Virus record (IMG/VR): IMGVR_UViG_2690316148_000011
DNA from: a virus
Lineage: Duplodnaviria; Heunggongvirae; Uroviricota; Caudoviricetes
DNA: 14,327 nucleotides
Strand: one strand, 5' to 3'
Numbering within the stretch: the stretch's first letter is position 1; the number at the start of each line of letters is the position of its first letter. The notes beneath the pieces are model-generated. The model saw only the letters and a program-made list of their open reading frames with translations, was not told where the DNA came from and did no database searches. Both the position numbers and the translations under genes were made by a program. Shown here piece by piece: positions 2,434 to 14,145 of the stretch.

Positions 2434-2864
2434 ATAGCTACATTCAACATTTTCTCTCACCTTTCATCACCGAAGTGAATTTTGTTGATGCGGTGCCTGG
2501 TGCCTCCAGGTGACGTTAACCAGTTAACAATTACAGTTGGCTTTCCCACCCAAACCAATAAGGACTAACATGACTTTTAACTGTGCCGCGTGCGCATAGC
2601 CGCATTCACCGCATCACAAAATTCACTTTAAAAAGGGCGGACATCAGCCAGCAATTAAACCGATGCCGCCAACTGGTACTTCACACAGCAATGTCGTTAT
2701 TTACAACCGGAAGCGCACTCCCACCATTTAAATTTCACAGACAAGACCGACTCTTTATGGATACCGGAAATGCGCCTTCGTGTTGTGCCCGGTTTTATTT
2801 CACCACCTCCGGGCTTTGGTATGAGGTGTACTGGCAATAGCGGACACTACCATTTGTTCTTTTT

Positions 2865-3683
2865 TTAAGCAGCCATCTGATGATATTTTTCCCTGAAGGC
2901 TGCCGGGGAGATATTCCCCAGACGAGAGTGACAACGCTGACGATTGTAGAAAATCTCAATGTATTCCCGTATTACTGAGATGGCTTCATCCCGGTTATTA
3001 AAACGATAGTGGCTCAGGCTCTCATTTTTCAGCGTTCCCCAGAAGCTTTCCATCGGAGCGTTGTCGTAACAGTTACCTTTACGCGACATTGATGTTTTCA
3101 GACCAGACTGCTCCTGTATGACCCGGTAATCGTATGCGCAGTACTGTGAACCTCGATCAGAGTGGTGGATTAGCCCGGCAGGTGGGCGCTGGCTCCTGAG
3201 CGCCATAAACAGGGCTTTACCTGTCAGCTCTTTTGTCATGCGCTCTCCCATGGCGTAGCCGACAATTTCGCACGTATAAACATCTTTGATGCCAGCGAGG
3301 TACAACCATCCCTCCTGTGTGGCAACATACGTCAGGTCCGCCACCCAGACCTGATTTGGTGCTGTAGGAGCGAACGTCTGGTTCAGCAGATTTGGCGCAA
3401 CTGGCAGATTGTGGTTCGAGTTCGTAGTCGCTCTGAACTTGCGTTTCTGCTTACAGCGTAGCCTTAGCTCCTTACGAAGACGTGCCAGTCGGTCACGACC
3501 AACGATGATGCCATTCTCTGCCAGCTCCGTCTGGAGCCGCCGGGTTCCATATGTTTCGCGAGTGCGGATATGTGCCACCTTAATCTCCAGTTTTAGCCGC
3601 TCATCACTTTGTTTTCTGTCTGAGGGTTCATGCTGTACCCAGTTGTAATAACCGCTCCTGGATACACCAAATACCTGACACAT
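2865..3683 (-). CDS. IS3-family transposase OrfB (DDE/integrase core), probably expressed as an OrfAB fusion by -1 frameshifting
   Basis: Motifs typical of the IS3 transposase catalytic domain (LIHHSDRGSQYCAYDY, SRKGNCYDNAPMESFW). I translated the orfB frame upstream of the first ATG by hand: it stays open to the A7G slippery run (about 3764-3772) inside orfA and is the -1 frame relative to orfA. Confidence 0.85.
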   Translation of the reverse strand: MCQVFGVSRSGYYNWVQHEPSDRKQSDERLKLEIKVAHIRTRETYGTRRLQTELAENGIIVGRDRLARLRKELRLRCKQKRKFRATTNSNHNLPVAPNLLNQTFAPTAPNQVWVADLTYVATQEGWLYLAGIKDVYTCEIVGYAMGERMTKELTGKALFMALRSQRPPAGLIHHSDRGSQYCAYDYRVIQEQSGLKTSMSRKGNCYDNAPMESFWGTLKNESLSHYRFNNRDEAISVIREYIEIFYNRQRCHSRLGNISPAAFREKYHQMAA

Positions 3684-3718
3684 CGCTTCAATGGGAAATT
3701 GTTGTCGCCATTGTTCGA

Positions 3719-3959
3719 TTAACGCGTATTTTTCAGCGACTCCTGTGCAAAATACGCTGTTGCTTTTTTTAATATATCTCGCTCAAGGCGAGCTTCATTT
3801 AACGCCTTACGCAGTTGCAGAATTTCAGATTCCAGTTCAGCCACCGTGCGGGAACCAGGAGTACCGAGCCCTTTTCTGGCGGCGGTAACCCATTGTCCTA
3901 AAGTGCCTTCAGGAAGAGATAATCGGGAAGCGCCTTCACTGATCGAAAGTTGATTTTCA
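3719..3959 (-). pseudogene. IS3-family OrfA, N-terminally truncated (HTH plus leucine-zipper region retained)
   Basis: Sequence ...LSISEGASRLSLPEGTLGQWV...ELESEILQLRKALNEARLERDILKKATAYF matches the C-terminal two-thirds of IS3-family OrfA. No start codon; the ORF runs into the n at 3960. Confidence 0.7.
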
Positions 3960-3960
3960 N

Positions 3961-4403
3961 ACCGGTCATCACGGAACCCGGCCAGCCTTGCGGTTGCCCT
4001 GCACATCCCACCATAATTTGAATGGAGCTGTGCATTACGCATAAAAAAACCGCTTCAGCGCGGCTATGCGCTCGAGTAACGTTCGGGTTTCCACGCCCGG
4101 CACCCGTTTTATAAGGTGCAGGTGCACTATAATTCCACCCGTTCTGGTTTTCAATAGCTACATTCAACATTTTCTCTCACCTTTCATCACCGAAGTGAAT
4201 TTTGTTGATGCGGTGCCTGGTGCCTCCAGGTGACGTTAACCAGTTAACAATTAACGCCGGATACAGGGAAACCCATAACCACCCGATACGGGGGAACTAA
4301 TCGCTTTTTAACTGTGCCGCGTGCGCTGAGCCGCATTCACCGCATCACAAAATTCACTTTAAAAAGGGCGGACATCAGCCAGCAATGAAACTGATGCCGC
4401 CAA
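3961..4403. repeat. Copy 2 of the ~430-bp duplicated module
   Basis: Aligns with 2241-2672 at a constant offset of 1720 for the first ~280 bp, then a divergent patch, then a second conserved block. Confidence 0.9.
4043..4117 (-). ncRNA. Second copy of the candidate small RNA; no downstream antirepressor gene because the truncated IS abuts it
   Basis: Same promoter hexamers (4125-4153) and a hairpin AGCCGC-GCUGAA-GCGGUU plus U-run at 4043-4065. Relative to copy 1 the changes fall in the loop and convert an A-U pair to G-U. Confidence 0.3.
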
Positions 4404-5479: not shown

Positions 5480-5522
5480 AAAATAGCATCATTATTTTTT
5501 GATGTAAATAGCATCGCTATTG
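5480..5522 (-). promoter_or_regulatory. OL-like region: two 17-bp operator-like palindromes (5481-5497, 5506-5522) overlapping a leftward sigma70-like promoter
   Basis: AAATAGCATCATTATTT and AAATAGCATCGCTATTG, centres 25 bp apart; minus-strand -35 TTTACA (plus 5503-5508) and -10 TATTTT (plus 5480-5485) with 17-nt spacer. Confidence 0.5.
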
Positions 5523-5535
5523 TTTTTGTTGGGGC

Positions 5536-5560
5536 AAGAAAAAACCACCCTAAGGTGGTT
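5536..5560 (-). terminator. Rho-independent terminator downstream of the ParE-like gene (minus strand)
   Basis: Minus-strand AACCACC-UUAG-GGUGGUU hairpin (7-bp stem) followed by UUUUUUCUU, 17 nt after the toxin stop codon. Confidence 0.55.
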
Positions 5561-5576
5561 CTGTCGGCGGGAATAA

Positions 5577-5867
5577 TTAACTGTTTTTGCCTGGATACTG
5601 TCTTCGAGAATGCACAATATTTACTACTTCTATGCTTGATGCTGTTACTCGGTAAAGGATGATGTAGTTAGGATGAGTTACAATTTCACGAAGACCAAGA
5701 ACTCGCTCGCTTGGAGGATACAGGTAAGGATGCTCTGTGAGCGGCAAAACGGATGTTTCAATTCGAATTTTCATTCTGCGTGCTGCCGCGGGATTTTCTT
5801 TAGCTATGTAGGCTACGATCTGGCGCAAATCATCACGAGCAGATGGTAGCCATAAAACGGGTAACAT
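5577..5867 (-). CDS. ParE/RelE-family type II toxin (ParE2-like)
   Basis: 96-aa protein with ParE/RelE-like N-terminus (MLPVLWLPSARDDLRQIVAYI) and C-terminus (IILYRVTASSIEVVNIVHSRRQYP); start overlaps the antitoxin stop (TAATG). Confidence 0.85.
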   Translation of the reverse strand: MLPVLWLPSARDDLRQIVAYIAKENPAAARRMKIRIETSVLPLTEHPYLYPPSERVLGLREIVTHPNYIILYRVTASSIEVVNIVHSRRQYPGKNS

Positions 5868-6061
5868 TATTCACCTCTGTGAGTTGCAGCAGCAATTTGG
5901 GCAATAATTTGTTCCATTTCCGCCATTACCTCATCATGCGGAATCGCCGGGCGGGGATCCGCGAGGCTTGCTGCTACTTTGGCCCGCAGCCATTCGTTGT
6001 AACTATTTTCTTGCTCAACTGTCTCAAATTCTGAAACCATTGGGGAAAGGACTGTACTCAT
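5867..6061 (-). CDS. Small antitoxin, PaaA2-like
   Basis: 64-aa acidic protein immediately upstream of, and translationally coupled to, the ParE-like gene; AGGAG RBS 9 nt upstream. N-terminal SPMVSEFETVEQENSYNEWLRAKVAASLADPRPAIPHDEV resembles the PaaA2 antitoxin of E. coli O157 as I recall it. Confidence 0.75.
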   Translation of the reverse strand: MSTVLSPMVSEFETVEQENSYNEWLRAKVAASLADPRPAIPHDEVMAEMEQIIAQIAAATHRGE

Positions 6062-6080
6062 TTTACATATCTCCTCTGAT

Positions 6081-6581
6081 TTAGGCGCGACGGCCTTTTT
6101 GTGCAGCTAACCACCGCGCAACCGTACGATCCATTGATTCTTTTTTATCTTTCATCTCCTGAAGCATGTGTTCTTGATCTTCTTTCGGAAAAGCTCTGAA
6201 CGTATGGATTAAATCTCGTTCCATCGGCTCTACGGCAAACGGTAGTTCATCCTCTGTTTGTTCTGTGTCTGCTGGTAATGCGACTATGTTATCTTGCTGT
6301 GGTTCTCGACAATACATCCTTGCAATTTGCAGCAAATCTACCATGTCTGGCCTGATTGACTCAGGGGGAACTTTCAGTAAGCCAGCAAACTTTAGAACAG
6401 CCTCAAGGTTTAGTGGGGTTTGACCATTTAGGTAGTGACTTACCGCCCCTTGTGTTGAAAACCCCATAATTTCCGCCGCACGTTCCTGAGTCAATCCCAA
6501 CTGAGATTTCTTTGCCATCCAGATTTCTTTCAGTCTTCTGGCGGCGTTGAGGTCGGTGTCTGACAATGATTTTCTTTTCAT
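6081..6581 (-). CDS. HTH (XRE/cI-like) transcriptional repressor, PaaR2/RacR-like; probable prophage immunity repressor
   Basis: HTH motif LTQERAAEIMGFSTQGAVSHYLNG; no peptidase S24 domain; first gene of the repressor-antitoxin-toxin operon; divergent from a Cro-like gene across an operator-bearing intergenic region. The ORF-track start at 6611 is GTG without an SD, so ATG 6579-6581 was chosen. Confidence 0.75.
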   Translation of the reverse strand: MKRKSLSDTDLNAARRLKEIWMAKKSQLGLTQERAAEIMGFSTQGAVSHYLNGQTPLNLEAVLKFAGLLKVPPESIRPDMVDLLQIARMYCREPQQDNIVALPADTEQTEDELPFAVEPMERDLIHTFRAFPKEDQEHMLQEMKDKKESMDRTVARWLAAQKGRRA

Positions 6582-6615
6582 ACATCCAATTCTAATAAGA
6601 TTGCTAATCACTTTG

Positions 6616-6657
6616 AAATAGCATCACTATTTACTTTTAAAAATAACAGTGCTATTA
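6616..6657. promoter_or_regulatory. OR-like region: two operator-like palindromes (6616-6632; inverted degenerate copy 6641-6657) between the divergent repressor and Cro-like genes
   Basis: AAATAGCATCACTATTT (perfect 6-bp arms) and, on the other strand, AATAGCACTGTTATTTT; centres 25 bp apart, the same spacing as the OL-like pair. Promoter hexamers are only weakly recognisable (for example TTTACT ... ATTAAT). Confidence 0.5.
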
Positions 6658-6692
6658 ATTATGCATTGGTAACACATCACATAGGGCGGATT

Positions 6693-6956
6693 ATGAATCT
6701 TGGAGAATATTTGCATCATTTTCATATAACCCAGAGTTCATTTGCTGAGATTGTTGGCGCATCCCAAGGGATGGTCAGCCACGTTATAACGGGGCGTGCA
6801 AAACTTACAGGAGAAAAAATATTACGTTGGTGTGAAGCAACGGGATGGGTGGTGACCCCACATGAGATTGACAGTAAAACCTACCCCAACCCAACTGACG
6901 GCTTGCCTGCTGAGTTTCAGGCTAACACACAACCATCGGCGGGGGTTGATTCATGA
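6693..6956 (+). CDS. Cro-like HTH regulator (YdaS family)
   Basis: 87-aa protein with HTH (SQGMVSHVITGRAKLTGEKILRW); ATG at 6693 with AGGG RBS; divergent from the repressor; overlaps the next gene (ATGA). Confidence 0.7.
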   Translation: MNLGEYLHHFHITQSSFAEIVGASQGMVSHVITGRAKLTGEKILRWCEATGWVVTPHEIDSKTYPNPTDGLPAEFQANTQPSAGVDS

Positions 6957-7378
6957 AAATCAAGCATGAACACATCCGCATGGCGATGAAAGCCTGGGCG
7001 CATCCGGACGGTGAAAAAGTTCCGGCAGCTGAAATAACCAGGGTTTATTTCGAACTGGGAATGACGTTTCCGGTTCTGCATAACGACAGCAAGCACAACA
7101 CGCTTTATCTCAACACCCAAAAGATTTTCCGTTGGCTGGATAAAGACACCCCTGACGCTGTTGAAAAAATTCAGGCGTTGTTACCTGCGATCGAAAGGGC
7201 AATGCCACCTCCGCTGGTGGCTCGAATGCGCAGCCACAGTTCAGCTTATTTTCGGGAACTGGTGGAGACGCATGAACGACTGGTGAGAGACGCTGATGAT
7301 TTTGTCGCAGTGGCAATCGCCGGTTTCAATCAGATGAACCGTGGTGGCCCGGCAGGAAATGCTGTGGCAGTACATTGA
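6953..7378 (+). CDS. YdaT-like protein (Rac-type early-region protein, reported as toxic in Rac)
   Basis: 141 aa, N-terminus MKIKHEHI...; position directly downstream of the Cro/YdaS-like gene matches the Rac racR-ydaS-ydaT arrangement. Family assignment is from memory of that locus. Confidence 0.55.
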   Translation: MKIKHEHIRMAMKAWAHPDGEKVPAAEITRVYFELGMTFPVLHNDSKHNTLYLNTQKIFRWLDKDTPDAVEKIQALLPAIERAMPPPLVARMRSHSSAYFRELVETHERLVRDADDFVAVAIAGFNQMNRGGPAGNAVAVH

Positions 7379-10452: not shown

Positions 10453-10509
10453 GTGAAATTAGCTATCAGGCTTCAATTACCGCTGGCATTCGCATCAAAG
10501 GAGAGGAGC

Positions 10510-11019
10510 ATGGAAATAAAACCAGAAGATGAGTTAAGCAATATTGTTTTATTTCCGGTAAAAGAGGATAACCCTCGTAATCAGGTTAATTTTCTTTATG
10601 AGCCATCGGAAAGACCATATTGCCATCACGCTTCTGTCCGGGTTGACGAAAAAGAGCGTCAGGTCCGCTGTAAAATNNNNNNNNNNNNNNNNNNNNNNNN
10701 NNNNNNNNNNNNNNNNNNNNNNNNNNNNNNNNNNNNNNNNNNNNNNNNNNNNNNNNNNNNNNNNNNNNNNNNNNNNNNNNNNNNNNNNNNNNNNNNNNNN
10801 NNNNNNNNNNNNNNNNNNNNNNNNNNNNNNNNNNNNNNNNNNNNNNNNNNNTTTGACTGGATGCTCTCTGTGGCGAAAAGAGAAACCAGACTGGCAGATG
10901 ATGTAAGGCTCTTGCGCCAGGAGGAGCGGGAAAGGCGAAAAAATATAGAAAAGCTAATCCAGATTGAGCGTAATGCGAAAGCGCGGATACGCAGGGTGAC
11001 AAAATATAGCCCCGAATAA
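10510..11019 (+). CDS. Hypothetical protein interrupted by an N run; possible Cys/His-containing N-terminal segment
   Basis: ATG at 10510 preceded by AAGGAGAGGAG. The 175-nt N run (10677-10851) is not a multiple of 3, so frame continuity across it is unknown. C-terminal part is charged and coiled-coil-like. Confidence 0.4.
   Translation: MEIKPEDELSNIVLFPVKEDNPRNQVNFLYEPSERPYCHHASVRVDEKERQVRCKXXXXXXXXXXXXXXXXXXXXXXXXXXXXXXXXXXXXXXXXXXXXXXXXXXXXXXXXXXXFDWMLSVAKRETRLADDVRLLRQEERERRKNIEKLIQIERNAKARIRRVTKYSPE
10677..10851. other. Run of 175 N (assembly gap or masked sequence)
   Basis: Literal n characters. Confidence 1.
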
Positions 11020-11233: not shown

Positions 11234-13066
11234 ATGGCCCGCATGTTTGATACATTAGGATTTTACATTATGAATGTGCAACATTTTGATTTTTTTACAG
11301 ATAATGAGTTTTCTAATCTGGAAAGATATCAAACTTGTAAAGCCATGGCCAAAGGTTATGCGGGCAATTACAAAACCGGGCAGTCAAGGTTGATGCATGC
11401 CCGCTCATACTGCTTCAGCATCGTAGCTGCATATTGGGATACCCTTGCAAAAAAGCAAAAAAGCAGCATTAAAATGAGGGCAGTACCGCACACTGTTTAC
11501 ATAGAAGACATTCCATGTGATGCACGCGAGCTCGCTGAACGAACAGGTGAGCTTATTGCTCAATTTCCGGCGGAGGACGCTGGATATCTGATTGGGTCAA
11601 TTTATACGGTAATGCTGCCATCCGCTTACCGTTCGGAATTGGGGGCTTACTATACCCCCCCACCTTTGGTAGCGCGTCTCTTGGACCTGGCTGAAAAGTC
11701 TGGTGTTGATTTTTCTCATGCATCGGTTATTGATCCTGCGTGTGGTGGCGGTGCATTTTTGGCACCAGTAGCCATTCGAATGTTAAAAAAAGACAAGGGG
11801 TCTTCCCCTGAATGGATGTTGAGGAGAATCAGTCGTCGTTTAAAGGGGATAGAAATCGATCCATTTGCGGCTTGGATGAGTTTGGTATTGCTCGAATCTG
11901 TACTAATGCCACTATGTGTAAAGGTAAAACGTAGATTGCCTGAAGATACAATTATTGTTGCTGATGCGCTTCAGCAAGATAAATTTTCTGGTTATGATCT
12001 TGTGGTAGGGAATCCGCCTTACGGACGTGTCACTCTCGATATTAAAACGAGAGAAAAATATTCTCGTTCGTTATTTGGTCATGCAAATCTATATGGATTG
12101 TTCACCGACTTAGCTGTTCGCATGGTTAAAGAGAAAACAGGAGTTATTGCATTTCTTACGCCAACTTCTTTTCTTGGTGGGCAGTATTTCACCGCGCTGC
12201 GAACCCTTTTGACCGAAAAAACTACTCCGTATGCCCTTGATTTCGTCACTGACAGGGATGGGGTCTTTGACGATGTTCTCCAGGAAACAATGTTGACAGC
12301 ATTCAAGGCGGGAGAACATAAAGTTCGGGCCCAGGTATCCTCACTTGTCCCTAAGGGGTTGAACAAAGCAAAAATTGAGAAAATAGGTAATGTTGATATA
12401 GAAAAAGGTGGAGCAACGTGGCTTTTGCCACGCGTTAAAGATGATGCCTGTTTTCTTAATGTATTAAAACAGATGTCTACGCGTTTAGCTGATCTGGGAT
12501 ACTCAGTCTCTACAGGTCAGTTAGTCTGGAATCGATTTAAGTCGCAGTTGCGTACGACGAAAGGAAAAAATAGCTACCCATTAGTCTGGGCGGAATCAAT
12601 AACTTCAGCTGGTTTTCGTTTTAGTGCAGACAGAAAAAATCATGTTCCCTATATCGATATAACCCCACAACAGGGTTTCCTTGTGACAAAATCTGAATGT
12701 GTGCTTGTTCAGCGGACAACATCGAAGGAACAGGACAGAAGGATTTTAGCGGCAATTTTACCTCAGGGATTTATAGATGAAACTGGTGGCGTAGTAGTTG
12801 AAAACCATATTAATATTGTATATTCAAACGGATTGTTCTCTGCGGTTCGCCCTGATGTTATTGATATGCTACTTAATTCGCATGTTGTCGATCGGGCGTT
12901 CAGGTGTATAAGCGGAAGTGTTGCTGTTTCGGCCTATGAATTGAATTCAATCCCGTTGCCTTCTCTGGAGCAGGTGATGGAGATTCAATCGTTAATTGAT
13001 GCTGGCGTCCACAGACGGATTATTGAGAGAACTATCGCTGGTTTCTATGGAGTGATGATTGCATGA
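11234..13066 (+). CDS. N6-adenine DNA methyltransferase, gamma-class (motif I before motif IV), Type II R-M modification subunit
   Basis: Motif X/I YYTPPPLVARLLDLA ... VIDPACGGGAFL followed by motif IV VVGNPPYGRV; long C-terminal region consistent with a target-recognition domain. AT-rich compared with the prophage core. Start uncertain: ATG 11234 (weak SD) or ATG 11269 (AGGA upstream). Confidence 0.85.
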   Translation: MARMFDTLGFYIMNVQHFDFFTDNEFSNLERYQTCKAMAKGYAGNYKTGQSRLMHARSYCFSIVAAYWDTLAKKQKSSIKMRAVPHTVYIEDIPCDARELAERTGELIAQFPAEDAGYLIGSIYTVMLPSAYRSELGAYYTPPPLVARLLDLAEKSGVDFSHASVIDPACGGGAFLAPVAIRMLKKDKGSSPEWMLRRISRRLKGIEIDPFAAWMSLVLLESVLMPLCVKVKRRLPEDTIIVADALQQDKFSGYDLVVGNPPYGRVTLDIKTREKYSRSLFGHANLYGLFTDLAVRMVKEKTGVIAFLTPTSFLGGQYFTALRTLLTEKTTPYALDFVTDRDGVFDDVLQETMLTAFKAGEHKVRAQVSSLVPKGLNKAKIEKIGNVDIEKGGATWLLPRVKDDACFLNVLKQMSTRLADLGYSVSTGQLVWNRFKSQLRTTKGKNSYPLVWAESITSAGFRFSADRKNHVPYIDITPQQGFLVTKSECVLVQRTTSKEQDRRILAAILPQGFIDETGGVVVENHINIVYSNGLFSAVRPDVIDMLLNSHVVDRAFRCISGSVAVSAYELNSIPLPSLEQVMEIQSLIDAGVHRRIIERTIAGFYGVMIA

Positions 13067-14145
13067 ATCTGCCTGTTGTTCCCCCATTGAATGTTATCCG
13101 GGAAAGATTACAATTAATTTTCCCTGAAGGGACTGAGAATCGTGGATATTTAATTCGGGAAATAGCTGCAAAAACAATTTTTGTCATGTTTTATGCTGGT
13201 GCGGTTGAGGGGCTGGGGCGATGGATAAGGCCCAGCCAGGTTGTAAGTATGGGAGATTCGCAGGCTGCTCTTACTGATGATGCGTCCAGAGAAAGCTGGG
13301 TAAAGATGACTTTCTCTAAACAAAAGATAAGGCCTGCTGATGCATGGTATGCGGAAAATACGCGTGAGCCAATACGTGATGAAACTATAAAAAATGGCCT
13401 AATACCTTGCAATGCAATTGTTGAGCGTAAAGGTATACCCACCACATCCTCTCGTCCTCGTTACAGTTTGAATCGCTCTTTTGCAGCACTCTTTGATGCC
13501 GGGCTTGAAGGAGATTCGCTGCTGAGTGCAATAAGTTCCTGGCAAGAAAATCATTTGAACAAAGCCGCTCTTGCTAGGTTGCGTTTATTGAAATCAGGGG
13601 CAGTGATTGCTGCTGATGCCGTAGTCGTCACTTTCCCAAATGGAGAGAAGAGAACTTTAGCTCCGGGCCCGTCAAGTACAATAGCTAAGGCCGTCATCGA
13701 AGTTTTTGCTCCTAATTTTCTTAAGAATCCAACTGTGCTCTGGTTGTCTGAATCCGGGAATAAAGTTGTTGCTCAGGATGATGTATTGGCAAAAGCATTG
13801 GGGCTGAATATTGATGCCTCAAAAGCACTTCCAGATATTATTTTGATTGATTTGGGAGAGGACCGAACGGGTTCGGACATGCTTGTAGTTTTCACTGAAG
13901 TAGTTGCGACAGATGGGCCTATAAACAGGGAACGAAAAGTTACTCTCACTCATTTGGCTATTGACGCTGGGTTCAGCGAGAAAAATCTTGCATTCCTTAC
14001 GGCATTTATGGACAGAAGTGCTCTGCCTTTTAAAAAGGCAATACCAGAATTGGCGTGGGGATCTTATGCATGGTTTGCTTCTGAACCGGAGCACTTAATT
14101 GATCTTCGGGATGGTTATCCGGTAAAGATCAGCCAGAGAAAATGA
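13063..14145 (+). CDS. Putative restriction endonuclease partner of the methyltransferase (possibly BsuBI/PstI-like; unverified)
   Basis: 360-aa ORF whose ATG overlaps the methyltransferase stop (ATGA) with GGAG upstream; same AT-rich composition; size and position typical of a Type II endonuclease. No catalytic motif could be assigned confidently by eye. Confidence 0.5.
   Translation: MNLPVVPPLNVIRERLQLIFPEGTENRGYLIREIAAKTIFVMFYAGAVEGLGRWIRPSQVVSMGDSQAALTDDASRESWVKMTFSKQKIRPADAWYAENTREPIRDETIKNGLIPCNAIVERKGIPTTSSRPRYSLNRSFAALFDAGLEGDSLLSAISSWQENHLNKAALARLRLLKSGAVIAADAVVVTFPNGEKRTLAPGPSSTIAKAVIEVFAPNFLKNPTVLWLSESGNKVVAQDDVLAKALGLNIDASKALPDIILIDLGEDRTGSDMLVVFTEVVATDGPINRERKVTLTHLAIDAGFSEKNLAFLTAFMDRSALPFKKAIPELAWGSYAWFASEPEHLIDLRDGYPVKISQRK

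Follow-up and report, generated by a model that had tools for sequence, protein, structure and literature searches.

In prophage CP-933P, PaaR2 has already been shown to be the immunity repressor (Jurenas 2021, PMC8630535). There the parts of CI, Cro and CII are played by PaaR2, YdaS and YdaT, respectively, and on the far side of parE2 from paaR2 a PL promoter with its OL sites occupies the position of lambda PL (PMC8630535). The CP-933P locus is addictive, as shown by plasmid stabilisation (PMC8630535), and no ParE2 activity was detected there in either expression state. The idea that the regulator of such an operon doubles as immunity repressor is not new. The repressor-antitoxin-toxin operon that we describe here is real but largely ordinary, being a variant of the paaR-paaA-parE systems already characterised in E. 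coli O157:H7, and the current understanding of these systems is left unchanged. The locus adds a second case, heteroimmune to the first, in which a prophage immunity switch carries a PaaA-ParE pair. We consider it very probable that a lambdoid prophage remnant at the Qin site has its immunity region here, with the regulator as the CI analogue and PaaA-ParE as addictive cargo.

In the window (the whole stretch of 14,327 nucleotides that was analysed), ORF calls gave three intact minus-strand genes in the order regulator, antitoxin, toxin, where an earlier note on this DNA had placed them. They are followed by a terminator, and two plus-strand genes diverge from them:

5534-5562, minus strand: intrinsic terminator of the repressor-antitoxin-toxin operon (hairpin at 5541-5562, then a U-tract)
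5867-5577, minus strand: toxin, ParE family, 96 aa
6061-5867, minus strand: antitoxin, PaaA family, 64 aa, with no DNA-binding domain in Pfam
6581-6081, minus strand: regulator, putative PaaR-type immunity repressor, 166 aa from ATG (ORF call, profile and PDB matches)
6693-6956, plus strand: Cro-like HTH protein in the YdaS position, 87 aa
6953-7378, plus strand: YdaT, CII-like activator, 141 aa (Pfam YdaT_toxin, 5e-9)

An alternative upstream GTG would make the regulator 176 aa long, but it falls inside the operator region. The toxin start and the antitoxin stop share one base (TAATG), and the regulator stop is separated from the antitoxin start by 19 nt that include a GAGGAG Shine-Dalgarno, which agrees with the head-to-tail trio with coupled stops and starts read earlier. 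The terminator claimed straight after the toxin was found as well. A simple terminator scan did not flag the parE hairpin and the region was therefore folded explicitly, giving -15.1 kcal/mol (z = -2.95) for the hairpin and U-run; the stem is kept in the relative loci L001 and L002.

The identities claimed for the two small proteins were borne out. The antitoxin matched PaaA2 in Pfam (3e-23) and in the PDB (3zbe, 1.4e-23), scored 94 bits against NCBIfam TA_RelB_antitoxin (cut-off 50) and is 75% identical to PaaA2 over 56 aa, a resemblance on which the earlier reading had been made to depend. The toxin, described as having a ParE/RelE fold, aligned in full length and without gaps with ParE2 in the PDB (5cw7_B, 6.7e-37) and matched Pfam ParE_toxin at 1.8e-17. 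Its identity to ParE2 is 62/92 (67%), against 79/92 to the other O157 paralogue, and the antitoxin shares 49 of 63 residues with the PaaA of that paralogue. By sequence the pair resembles that paralogue more closely than it does PaaA2-ParE2. A labile PaaA, devoid of a DNA-binding domain, would neutralise ParE; a cell that lost the region would be killed or arrested by the toxin so released, and the immunity region would thus be addictive. Toxicity and addiction are attributed to this allele by analogy with the experiments on its CP-933P homologue.

The regulator is built from a lambda-CI-like N-terminal HTH, a linker and a PaaR/DicA-type C-terminal module of about 45 aa. It matched Pfam HTH_3 (8e-9) and the N-terminal domain of lambda CI in the PDB (1lmb, 2.9e-9); 32 of 80 residues of its DNA-binding domain (40%) are identical in the alignment with lambda CI residues 3-81, and a search of 50,697 phage records gave lambda cI as the best match. 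In 13 relatives the recognition helix keeps the motif TQGAVSHYLN without change. Repressors with CI-like and DicA-like HTH in tandem occur as 244-aa forms. The earlier note had labelled this protein cI/RacR-like. The first half of the label stood; the second was dropped, since BLASTP against K-12 RacR gave a best E of 29, that is, no detectable similarity, and the regulator is therefore cI-like and not RacR-like.

Pfam returned no Peptidase_S24 match in the regulator, whose C-terminus is instead occupied by the PaaR/DicA module. Over 44 aa this module shares 52% identity with PaaR2 (E 5e-15), the N-terminal DNA-binding domain being without similarity; homology to PaaR2 is thus partial and modular. 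With the PaaR1-like regulator of O157, 56% identity extends over the last 64 aa, and the C-terminal region of DicA aligns with the module at 29% over 51 aa (E 2e-6). The curated cut-off for the DicA family was not reached (NCBIfam NF007257, 32.4 bits against 101), only model positions 74-130 being matched. The PaaR2 sequence used was taken from a ParE2-encoding contig and verified by the published N-terminus MQKKE; no PaaR2 structure was found in the PDB by sequence, lambda CI entries being the only ones matched. The parallel with paaR2-paaA2-parE2 drawn earlier holds for the architecture and for all three identities (PaaA 75%, ParE 67%), with the qualification that the regulator is homologous in its C-terminal module only and that the pair is nearer the other paralogue. 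The C-terminal module common to PaaR1, PaaR2 and DicA probably mediates oligomerisation; PaaR2 forms an octamer. The module is a portable unit joined to different DNA-binding domains. Such modular repressors may record exchanges of immunity specificity around a constant oligomerisation module, which is combined with a CI-like HTH, a DicA-like HTH or both in tandem. The kinship of the repressor to lambda CI, which for PaaR2 was argued from function and HHpred, is directly readable in the sequence here.

The two non-coding regions flanking the operon hold all four sites that match the 17-bp palindrome AAATAG-N5-CTATTT with at most two mismatches. The chance expectation is 0.73 sites, and four were reached in 3 of 200 shuffles; at three mismatches the search was uninformative (9 matches against 6.7 expected). 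The candidate operators of each flanking pair are 25 bp apart. The regulatory sites are as follows:

5481-5497: candidate OL operator, AAATAGCATCATTATTT, containing the -10 of a PL-like promoter (TGcTATTTT, minus strand, 5480-5485)
5506-5522: candidate OL operator, AAATAGCATCGCTATTG, overlapping the -35 of the leftward PL-like promoter
6589-6617, minus strand: PRM-like promoter, -35 TTCAAA, 17-nt spacer, -10 TAGAAT (promoter scan)
6593-6609: weak OR3-like site, TAATAAGATTGCTAATC, 8 of 12 half-site positions, overlapping the PRM -10, read by eye
6616-6632: OR2-like operator, AAATAGCATCACTATTT, a perfect palindrome overlapping the PR -35 (TTTACT, 6630-6635) and abutting the PRM -35
6641-6657: candidate OR1-like operator, AAATAACAGTGCTATTA, covering the spacer and -10 of a PR-like promoter (TGcTATTAA, 6650-6658)
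6946-6963: YdaT operator, TTGATTCATGAAAATCAA, an exact match at the junction of the ydaS stop and the ydaT start, in the PRE-analogue region

There are thus two strong sites and one weak site at OR, and two visible sites at OL. The PRM and PL hexamers that overlap operators come from the promoter scan; those of PR, which the scan did not flag, were read by eye. The PL-like promoter is directed towards ydfA, Rha and dicB. The OR3-like site, suggested by its conservation in loci L001, L002 and L019, is put forward without statistical support. Across loci whose regulators are 47-99% identical, including loci with different cargo, the operator half-sites are invariant and the central 5 bp are variable. 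The claim that the regulator is flanked by operators is supported by these predicted sites, with the OR and OL pairs lying on either side of the repressor-toxin-antitoxin unit. The centre of the OR2-like site lies 43 bp upstream of the regulator ATG and the PRM -10 ends 7 nt before it, which predicts a leaderless mRNA; all relatives, among them PaaR2, whose mRNA is leaderless by experiment, have a -10 hexamer 6-7 nt upstream of the regulator ATG.

The divergent cro-like gene expected from the earlier description was found in the ydaS position. Its product is unrelated in sequence to the YdaS of CP-933P and to DicC. YdaT matched the PHROG family of CII-like activators (3e-40) and shares 87% identity with its phage Evi homologue. 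The exact match at the ydaS-ydaT junction corresponds to the published YdaT site, TTGATT-N6-AATCAA, which has the same junction location (PMC9986795).

Gene identities, homologies, the anatomy of operators and promoters and their conservation in relatives were all observed directly, and from them a lambda-like switch can be proposed. The regulator would be a PaaR-type, non-cleavable repressor acting as a dimer or higher oligomer, and would bind the two strong and one weak OR sites and both OL sites listed above. Once bound, it would shut PR (ydaS, ydaT and replication genes) and PL (ydfA, Rha/antirepressor and dicB), while it would probably stimulate its own leaderless PRM transcript and repress PRM at high level. 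That transcript would also carry paaA and parE and end at the hairpin just before OL, which would leave the toxin-antitoxin genes in the rexAB position and have them expressed while repression (the "lysogenic" state) lasts. The repressor operators would also be contested by the cro-like YdaS, and YdaT acting on its site would drive a PRE-like leftward transcript. For DNA binding and leaderless initiation the proposal leans on experiments with the CP-933P homologue; none of the N-terminal domain, the operators and the cro-like gene is related to its CP-933P counterpart, and this transfer rests on architecture and not on identity of the DNA-binding part.

The dual role of the regulator advanced in the earlier note is favoured by the divergent cro-like gene, the flanking OR and OL and the lambda-like promoter geometry. 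The HTH protein might instead be a dedicated toxin-antitoxin regulator (a "split antitoxin"), with a self-contained module having landed in the prophage and immunity coming from elsewhere. The lack of a DNA-binding domain in PaaA would suit such a regulator, as would the original three-component description of paaR-paaA-parE (Hallez 2010), as relayed in PMC4803016. We regard this as very improbable. Past the terminator, too, there are candidate operators, which belong to a distinct PL-like promoter directed leftward; this repressor type recurs with an identical OR/OL layout next to other cargo (HigBA, HipA-like); regulators of Citrobacter, Yersinia and Rouxiella are not followed by paaA-parE; and the DNA-binding domain shares ancestry with that of lambda CI. 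Neither a second cI-like gene nor any other repressor candidate, which the earlier note had named as the finding to look for, was detected in the window or in the whole remnant, and the experiments on CP-933P contradict a dedicated regulator.

With the regulator taken as the immunity repressor, the interval between repressor and terminator/OL, in which paaA-parE sit, is indeed the rexAB-like position proposed for them. Among relatives, this slot holds varied toxin-antitoxin or defence cargo. In a Salmonella locus with the same repressor type and operators it holds HigB/HigA matching PD-Lambda-2 A/B of PADLOC, and in a metagenomic locus, again with the same repressor type and operators, it holds HipA_2 and DUF3037, matching the candidate PDC-M66 A/B of PADLOC. 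A scan of species-representative genomes gave six relatives of the regulator, none with paaA-parE downstream. It is conceivable, if rather unlikely, that the repressor-OL/PL interval is a swappable cargo bay served by a leaderless PRM, and that PaaA-ParE is an unrecognised defence expressed by the lysogen, instead of or besides addiction. In its stricter form this explanation makes PaaA-ParE mainly a defence against phages instead of an addiction module, working like rexAB, transcribed together with the repressor and triggered by infection; it shares the anatomy of the preferred explanation and departs from it solely in what the toxin-antitoxin pair is for. The different cargo of same-repressor relatives speaks for it, together with a type II restriction-modification system within the same remnant and the fact that lambda rexAB sits in the same position, between the repressor and OL. 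Nevertheless, PADLOC has no model that matches PaaA, ParE or the regulator, the papers retrieved report, by their titles and abstracts, no defence by PaaA-ParE, and the published plasmid stabilisation for the CP-933P system points to addiction. We therefore hold a primarily defensive role to be doubtful, and retain addictive cargo as the preferred reading.

The host element is a Qin-site prophage remnant riddled with IS1 and IS600-like insertions, in a Shigella sonnei-type chromosome. Integrase, lysis and structural/morphogenesis genes are absent from the remnant, and the residual PL/PR genes comprise dicB, a DUF1482/ydfD-like lysis protein and replication genes; the DicF sRNA was not detected. 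What looks like a 175-bp insertion at 10677-10851 consists of a stretch of N and has no biological meaning; the interval contains no tandem repeat. Six chromosomes carry nearly identical copies of the locus. As the host lineage is clonal, its identity across many genomes is not evidence of selection. Searches of E. coli genomes with the toxin-antitoxin genes gave 6 records by megablast and 842 genomes with homologues in distant mode.

The state of the remnant raises the question of whether the locus is an inert relic, with genes intact only because the host clone is young and with switch and toxin-antitoxin no longer functional. The gene losses and insertions throughout would fit, and near-identity in six chromosomes is expected from clonality alone. 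Against this, all five regulatory and toxin-antitoxin ORFs are full-length and free of frameshifts, the promoters, operators, terminator and YdaT site are intact, and dicB, the DUF1482/ydfD-like lysis protein and the replication genes still need silencing; in K-12, by analogy, dicA and racR remain needed. An inert relic is in our view improbable. Under the preferred reading of a working immunity switch, "prophage maintenance" here means the silencing of residual toxic early genes and the retention of the remnant, not the lysogeny of a live phage. Thousands of genomes of the Shigella sonnei type, and a subset of those of E. coli, carry genes annotated only as helix-turn-helix protein, RelB or RelE-ParE, which this reading explains.

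Compared with lambda cI-rexA-rexB, the present locus has a homologous repressor N-terminal domain and a divergent cro-like gene, predicted 17-bp operators with lambda-like spacing (23-25 bp) and an OR2-like site centred at about -43 of PRM. The promoter geometry likewise predicts a leaderless repressor mRNA, lambda cI mRNA being leaderless. In both, cargo that is not essential separates the repressor gene from a terminator, here the counterpart of lambda tImm, just ahead of OL/PL. The locus departs from lambda in that its repressor lacks an S24 peptidase or RecA-cleavable C-terminal domain, a ParE toxin-antitoxin pair takes the place of RexAB as cargo, only two OL sites are clear, and the role of CII is filled by the unrelated YdaT. 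With DicA/DicC of the K-12 Qin prophage the locus shares the chromosomal site (ydfI side, ynf genes) and downstream ydfA and dicB, plus a ydfD-like gene; Qin has no toxin-antitoxin genes after dicA, and the DicA N-terminal domain and DicC are unrelated to the present proteins.

The other paralogue of O157:H7 (locus L003, at 1.25 Mb in strain ATCC 43894) has a toxin-antitoxin pair closer to the present one than PaaA2-ParE2, and shares the flanking genes ydfA, dicB, exonuclease and ydaT. The L003 regulator, of 133 aa, differs in its HTH domain, and identity between the cro-like genes is only 24/65. L003 is presumably paaR1-paaA1-parE1, a name of "system 1" given by elimination because it is not PaaR2/ParE2.

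The paaR2-paaA2-parE2 system of CP-933P/Sp12 in E. coli O157:H7 shares gene order and strand logic with the present locus (Hallez 2010; Jurenas 2021, PMC8630535). Both lie between the ydaS-ydaT operon and the PL/OL region, followed by ydfA, and in both the -10 at 6-7 nt from the regulator ATG fits a leaderless start like that of PaaR2, as we infer here. The YdaT operator is identical as well. The regulator has 166 aa here and 123 aa in PaaR2, with unrelated N-terminal DNA-binding domains; the operators are AAATAG-N5-CTATTT here and GTTTAGTAA repeats in CP-933P; and the cro-like genes are unrelated. With a different DNA-binding domain, operators and cro-like gene, the immunity type differs from that of CP-933P. 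The cultivated temperate phage Evi carries the CP-933P-type module, PaaR2 (98%)-PaaA2-ParE2, in which PaaR2 is the only repressor candidate of the Evi immunity region.

The three open reading frames on the minus strand were found exactly where the earlier note had placed them:

6581..6081, minus: regulator, 166 aa counted from the ATG
6061..5867, minus: antitoxin, 64 aa
5867..5577, minus: toxin, 96 aa

The coupling of their stops and starts was confirmed as well, since the toxin start overlaps the antitoxin stop (TAATG) and only 19 nt, including a GAGGAG ribosome-binding site, separate the regulator stop from the antitoxin start. Folding also recovered the terminator expected straight after the toxin, a hairpin with a 9-bp stem (5541-5562) followed by a U-tract (-15.1 kcal/mol, z = -2.95).

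The antitoxin had been described as PaaA2-like and the toxin as having a ParE/RelE fold, and both assignments hold. The former matches Pfam PaaA2 (3e-23), the NCBIfam "RelB family" (94 bits against a cut-off of 50) and the solved structure of PaaA2 (3zbe, 1.4e-23), and the latter matches Pfam ParE_toxin (1.8e-17) and, over its full length, the structure of ParE2 (5cw7, 6.7e-37). The regulator (Pfam HTH_3, 8e-9) had been called cI/RacR-like, of which only the first half stands: the N-terminal domain of lambda CI is its sole match among solved structures (1lmb, 2.9e-9; 32/80 identical), and a direct comparison with RacR showed no similarity. Its C-terminus gives a partial, sub-threshold match to NCBIfam DicA, and the Pfam search revealed no S24 peptidase domain.

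The definition of paaR-paaA-parE loci as three-component systems, together with the finding that the two O157:H7 paralogues do not cross-react, goes back to Hallez et al. 2010 (as summarised in PMC4803016). Against the paralogue with PaaA2 and ParE2, PaaA is 75% identical to PaaA2 and ParE 67% identical to ParE2, whereas the regulator aligns with PaaR2 only over the last 44 residues (52% identical, E 5e-15). The PaaR2 sequence was taken from the contig encoding ParE2 and confirmed by the N-terminus reported in the literature (MQKKE). With the regulator of the second O157 paralogue, presumably PaaR1 by elimination, the alignment covers the last 64 residues (56% identical), and with K-12 DicA the C-terminal 51 residues (29%, E 2e-6). 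ParE and PaaA share 79/92 and 49/63 residues with their counterparts in the second paralogue; on these identity figures the toxin-antitoxin pair is nearer to that paralogue than to PaaA2-ParE2.

The regulator was also said to be divergent from cro and flanked by operators, and candidate operator palindromes do lie on both sides, two at OR and two at OL. At two mismatches or fewer, the window has four copies of this 17-bp palindrome, AAATAG-N5-CTATTT (0.73 expected by chance), with a spacing of 25 bp within each pair. The predicted sites and promoters are:

6616-6632: OR site between regulator and cro-like gene, perfect palindrome
6641-6657: OR site between regulator and cro-like gene
6593-6609: third, weaker candidate OR site, overlapping the regulator promoter, identified by eye
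5506-5522 and 5481-5497: OL sites just past the terminator
leftward, TTCAAA-17-TAGAAT: PRM-like promoter from the promoter scan, -10 ending 7 nt before the regulator ATG
leftward, TTTACA-17-TGcTATTTT: PL-like promoter from the promoter scan, embedded in the OL pair
rightward, TTTACT-17-TGcTATTAA: PR-like promoter within the OR pair, found by eye, absent from the scan output

From the centre of the perfect OR site to the regulator ATG downstream is 43 bp, the geometry that lets lambda CI at OR2 activate PRM. A C/T polymorphism at 6622 falls on the first central base of this OR2-like operator; over the 1.1-kb segment of repressor, toxin-antitoxin genes and OR, four of six near-identical chromosomes differ from the window at this base alone, and the immunity and toxin-antitoxin segment shows a single-base difference among the six.

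The divergent gene in the ydaS/cro position encodes an 87-aa HTH protein, unrelated in sequence comparison to DicC and to the YdaS of CP-933P, the cryptic O157:H7 prophage carrying paaR2-paaA2-parE2. The other divergent product, YdaT, shares 87% identity with its counterpart in phage Evi, and one exact copy of the published YdaT operator (TTGATT-N6-AATCAA) spans the junction between the ydaS stop and the ydaT start, as has been reported for CP-933P (PMC9986795).

Loci with regulators 99%, 80%, 75%, about 60% (244-aa forms) and 47% identical to that of the window were compared. Their predicted operator half-sites are conserved, with central bases that differ between loci; the 2 + 2 operator arrangement around the repressor plus downstream genes is retained, and 13 relatives share the recognition-helix motif TQGAVSHYLN without variation. 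A -10 hexamer lies 6-7 nt before the regulator ATG in every relative and in the experimentally leaderless PaaR2, and the bases between hexamer and ATG vary from locus to locus. The cargo between repressor and OL differs:

E. coli and Shigella-type genomes: PaaA-ParE
Salmonella locus (L015:4612-5339): HigB/HigA, PADLOC PD-Lambda-2 A/B-like
metagenomic contigs (L017:4787-6360): HipA_2 + DUF3037, PADLOC candidate PDC-M66 A/B-like

The same OR/OL operator pairs flank the HigB/HigA and HipA_2 + DUF3037 slots, and paaA-parE does not follow the regulator in representatives of Citrobacter, Yersinia and Rouxiella species. Conserved operators and promoters around differing cargo argue that the regulator serves in its own right as repressor of the element and that the toxin-antitoxin pair is cargo of a rexAB-like slot. 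By eye, the slot of a Pseudohongiella MAG (L027:4424-5019) holds a HicB/HicA-like pair.

Regulators of 240-255 aa (P0013-P0023; e.g. L017:4001-4735 and, in another relative, L022:3471-4223) have two HTHs each, the lambda-CI-like one of the window regulator and a PaaR1/DicA-like one, followed by the shared C-terminal module. They could represent fusions of the 166-aa and 132-aa regulators or forms ancestral to these. One E. coli assembly carries tandem PaaR genes before paaA-parE (L005:3977-5288), a 123-aa PaaR2-like gene followed by a 153-aa PaaR1-like one. In another (L004:1319-2871), paaA2 is separated from parE2 by the insertion of a 121-aa ORF and an IS91-family transposase, which gives the parE2 call an altered N-terminus (MILSV...; 108 aa).

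The element is a prophage remnant. Over most of its length the window is at least 99.85% identical to 4.8-5.0 Mb chromosomes, in which copies of its proteins are labelled Shigella sonnei, and it occupies the site of the K-12 Qin prophage, between ydfG-ydfH-ydfZ-ydfI and ynf/dmsD/clcB. The remnant keeps an exonuclease fragment, DUF1482, DicB, Rha modules, ydfA, the immunity region, replication genes and a type II restriction-modification system, while integrase, lysis and structural genes are missing. IS1 and IS600-like elements mark its borders and break it up. It contains no second cI-like gene, which speaks against the separate immunity repressor considered in the earlier note. The exact toxin-antitoxin allele is rare (2/5,426 complete E. 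coli genomes at 99% identity or more), 842 of the 5,426 carry a homologous PaaA-ParE pair, and in 72 genomes at least 80% of the length of the 2-kb immunity region is present with an identity of 81% or more. Other features are:

1596-2450, minus: intact Ash+pRha ORF
3898-4170, minus: second, truncated Ash ORF
2211-2298, 2323-2399 and 4043-4119, minus: one C4 antisense RNA and two IsrK RNAs (Rfam), in the 5' parts of the two Ash ORFs
2865-3683 and 3719-4042, minus: ORFs of an IS3-family element (about 2822-3959) that interrupts the second Ash/Rha gene and is 99.4% identical to the IS600 copy of a relative (L001)
11234-13066, plus: m6A methyltransferase, type II restriction-modification (PADLOC MTase_II, 1.8e-300)
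13063-14145, plus: BsuBI/PstI-family endonuclease, type II restriction-modification (PADLOC, 2.8e-128)

The restriction-modification system forms the right end of the remnant, with IS1 and then ydfI beyond it in related chromosomes. At the left edge, an IS end (1-32) appears to truncate the exonuclease gene, and the ORF at 30-1454 resembles a fusion of DUF1482 (ydfD-like) with the exonuclease. A run of 175 N (10677-10851), a masked stretch or assembly gap, corresponds to 23 bp in related chromosomes, and the 188-aa ORF spanning it (10453-11019) is therefore an artefact.

From these gene identities and this regulatory anatomy, we infer how the locus may function. The repressor would bind OR and OL, silencing PR and PL, and from a leaderless PRM would transcribe itself and paaA-parE up to the terminator before OL, with Cro-like input from the protein in the YdaS position and CII-like input from YdaT. 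Labile PaaA would neutralise ParE, so that loss or replacement of the immunity region would be penalised. As the repressor would not be RecA-cleavable, derepression would have to take another route; the Ash/Rha genes with C4 and IsrK RNAs, which look like a duplicated antirepressor module of the P1 immI / Gifsy IsrK-AnrP kind within the PL operon, are a speculative candidate.

In CP-933P, paaR2 takes the cI/dicA position and is translated from a leaderless mRNA; PaaR2, which is without a RecA-cleavage domain and octamerises, binds repeated operators at OR, and on the far side of parE2 from paaR2, where lambda has PL, there is a PL promoter with OL sites. PaaR2 is opposed to the Cro-like YdaS, the CII-like YdaT activates a PRE, and the locus shows both bistability and addiction (Jurenas et al. 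2021, PMC8630535). The central proposal of the earlier note, that the regulator doubles as the immunity repressor, had therefore already been published. In Evi, a temperate phage in cultivation, the immunity region holds PaaR2 (98%)-PaaA2-ParE2; complete phages, too, use repressors of this type. Systems of this kind are already known. What is new, and unlikely to surprise a specialist greatly, is a heteroimmune, uncharacterised member with a DNA-binding domain genuinely homologous to that of lambda CI, the modular build of PaaR/DicA-type repressors, with double-HTH forms of 244 aa and tandem PaaR genes among them, and the variable cargo of the slot between repressor and OL.
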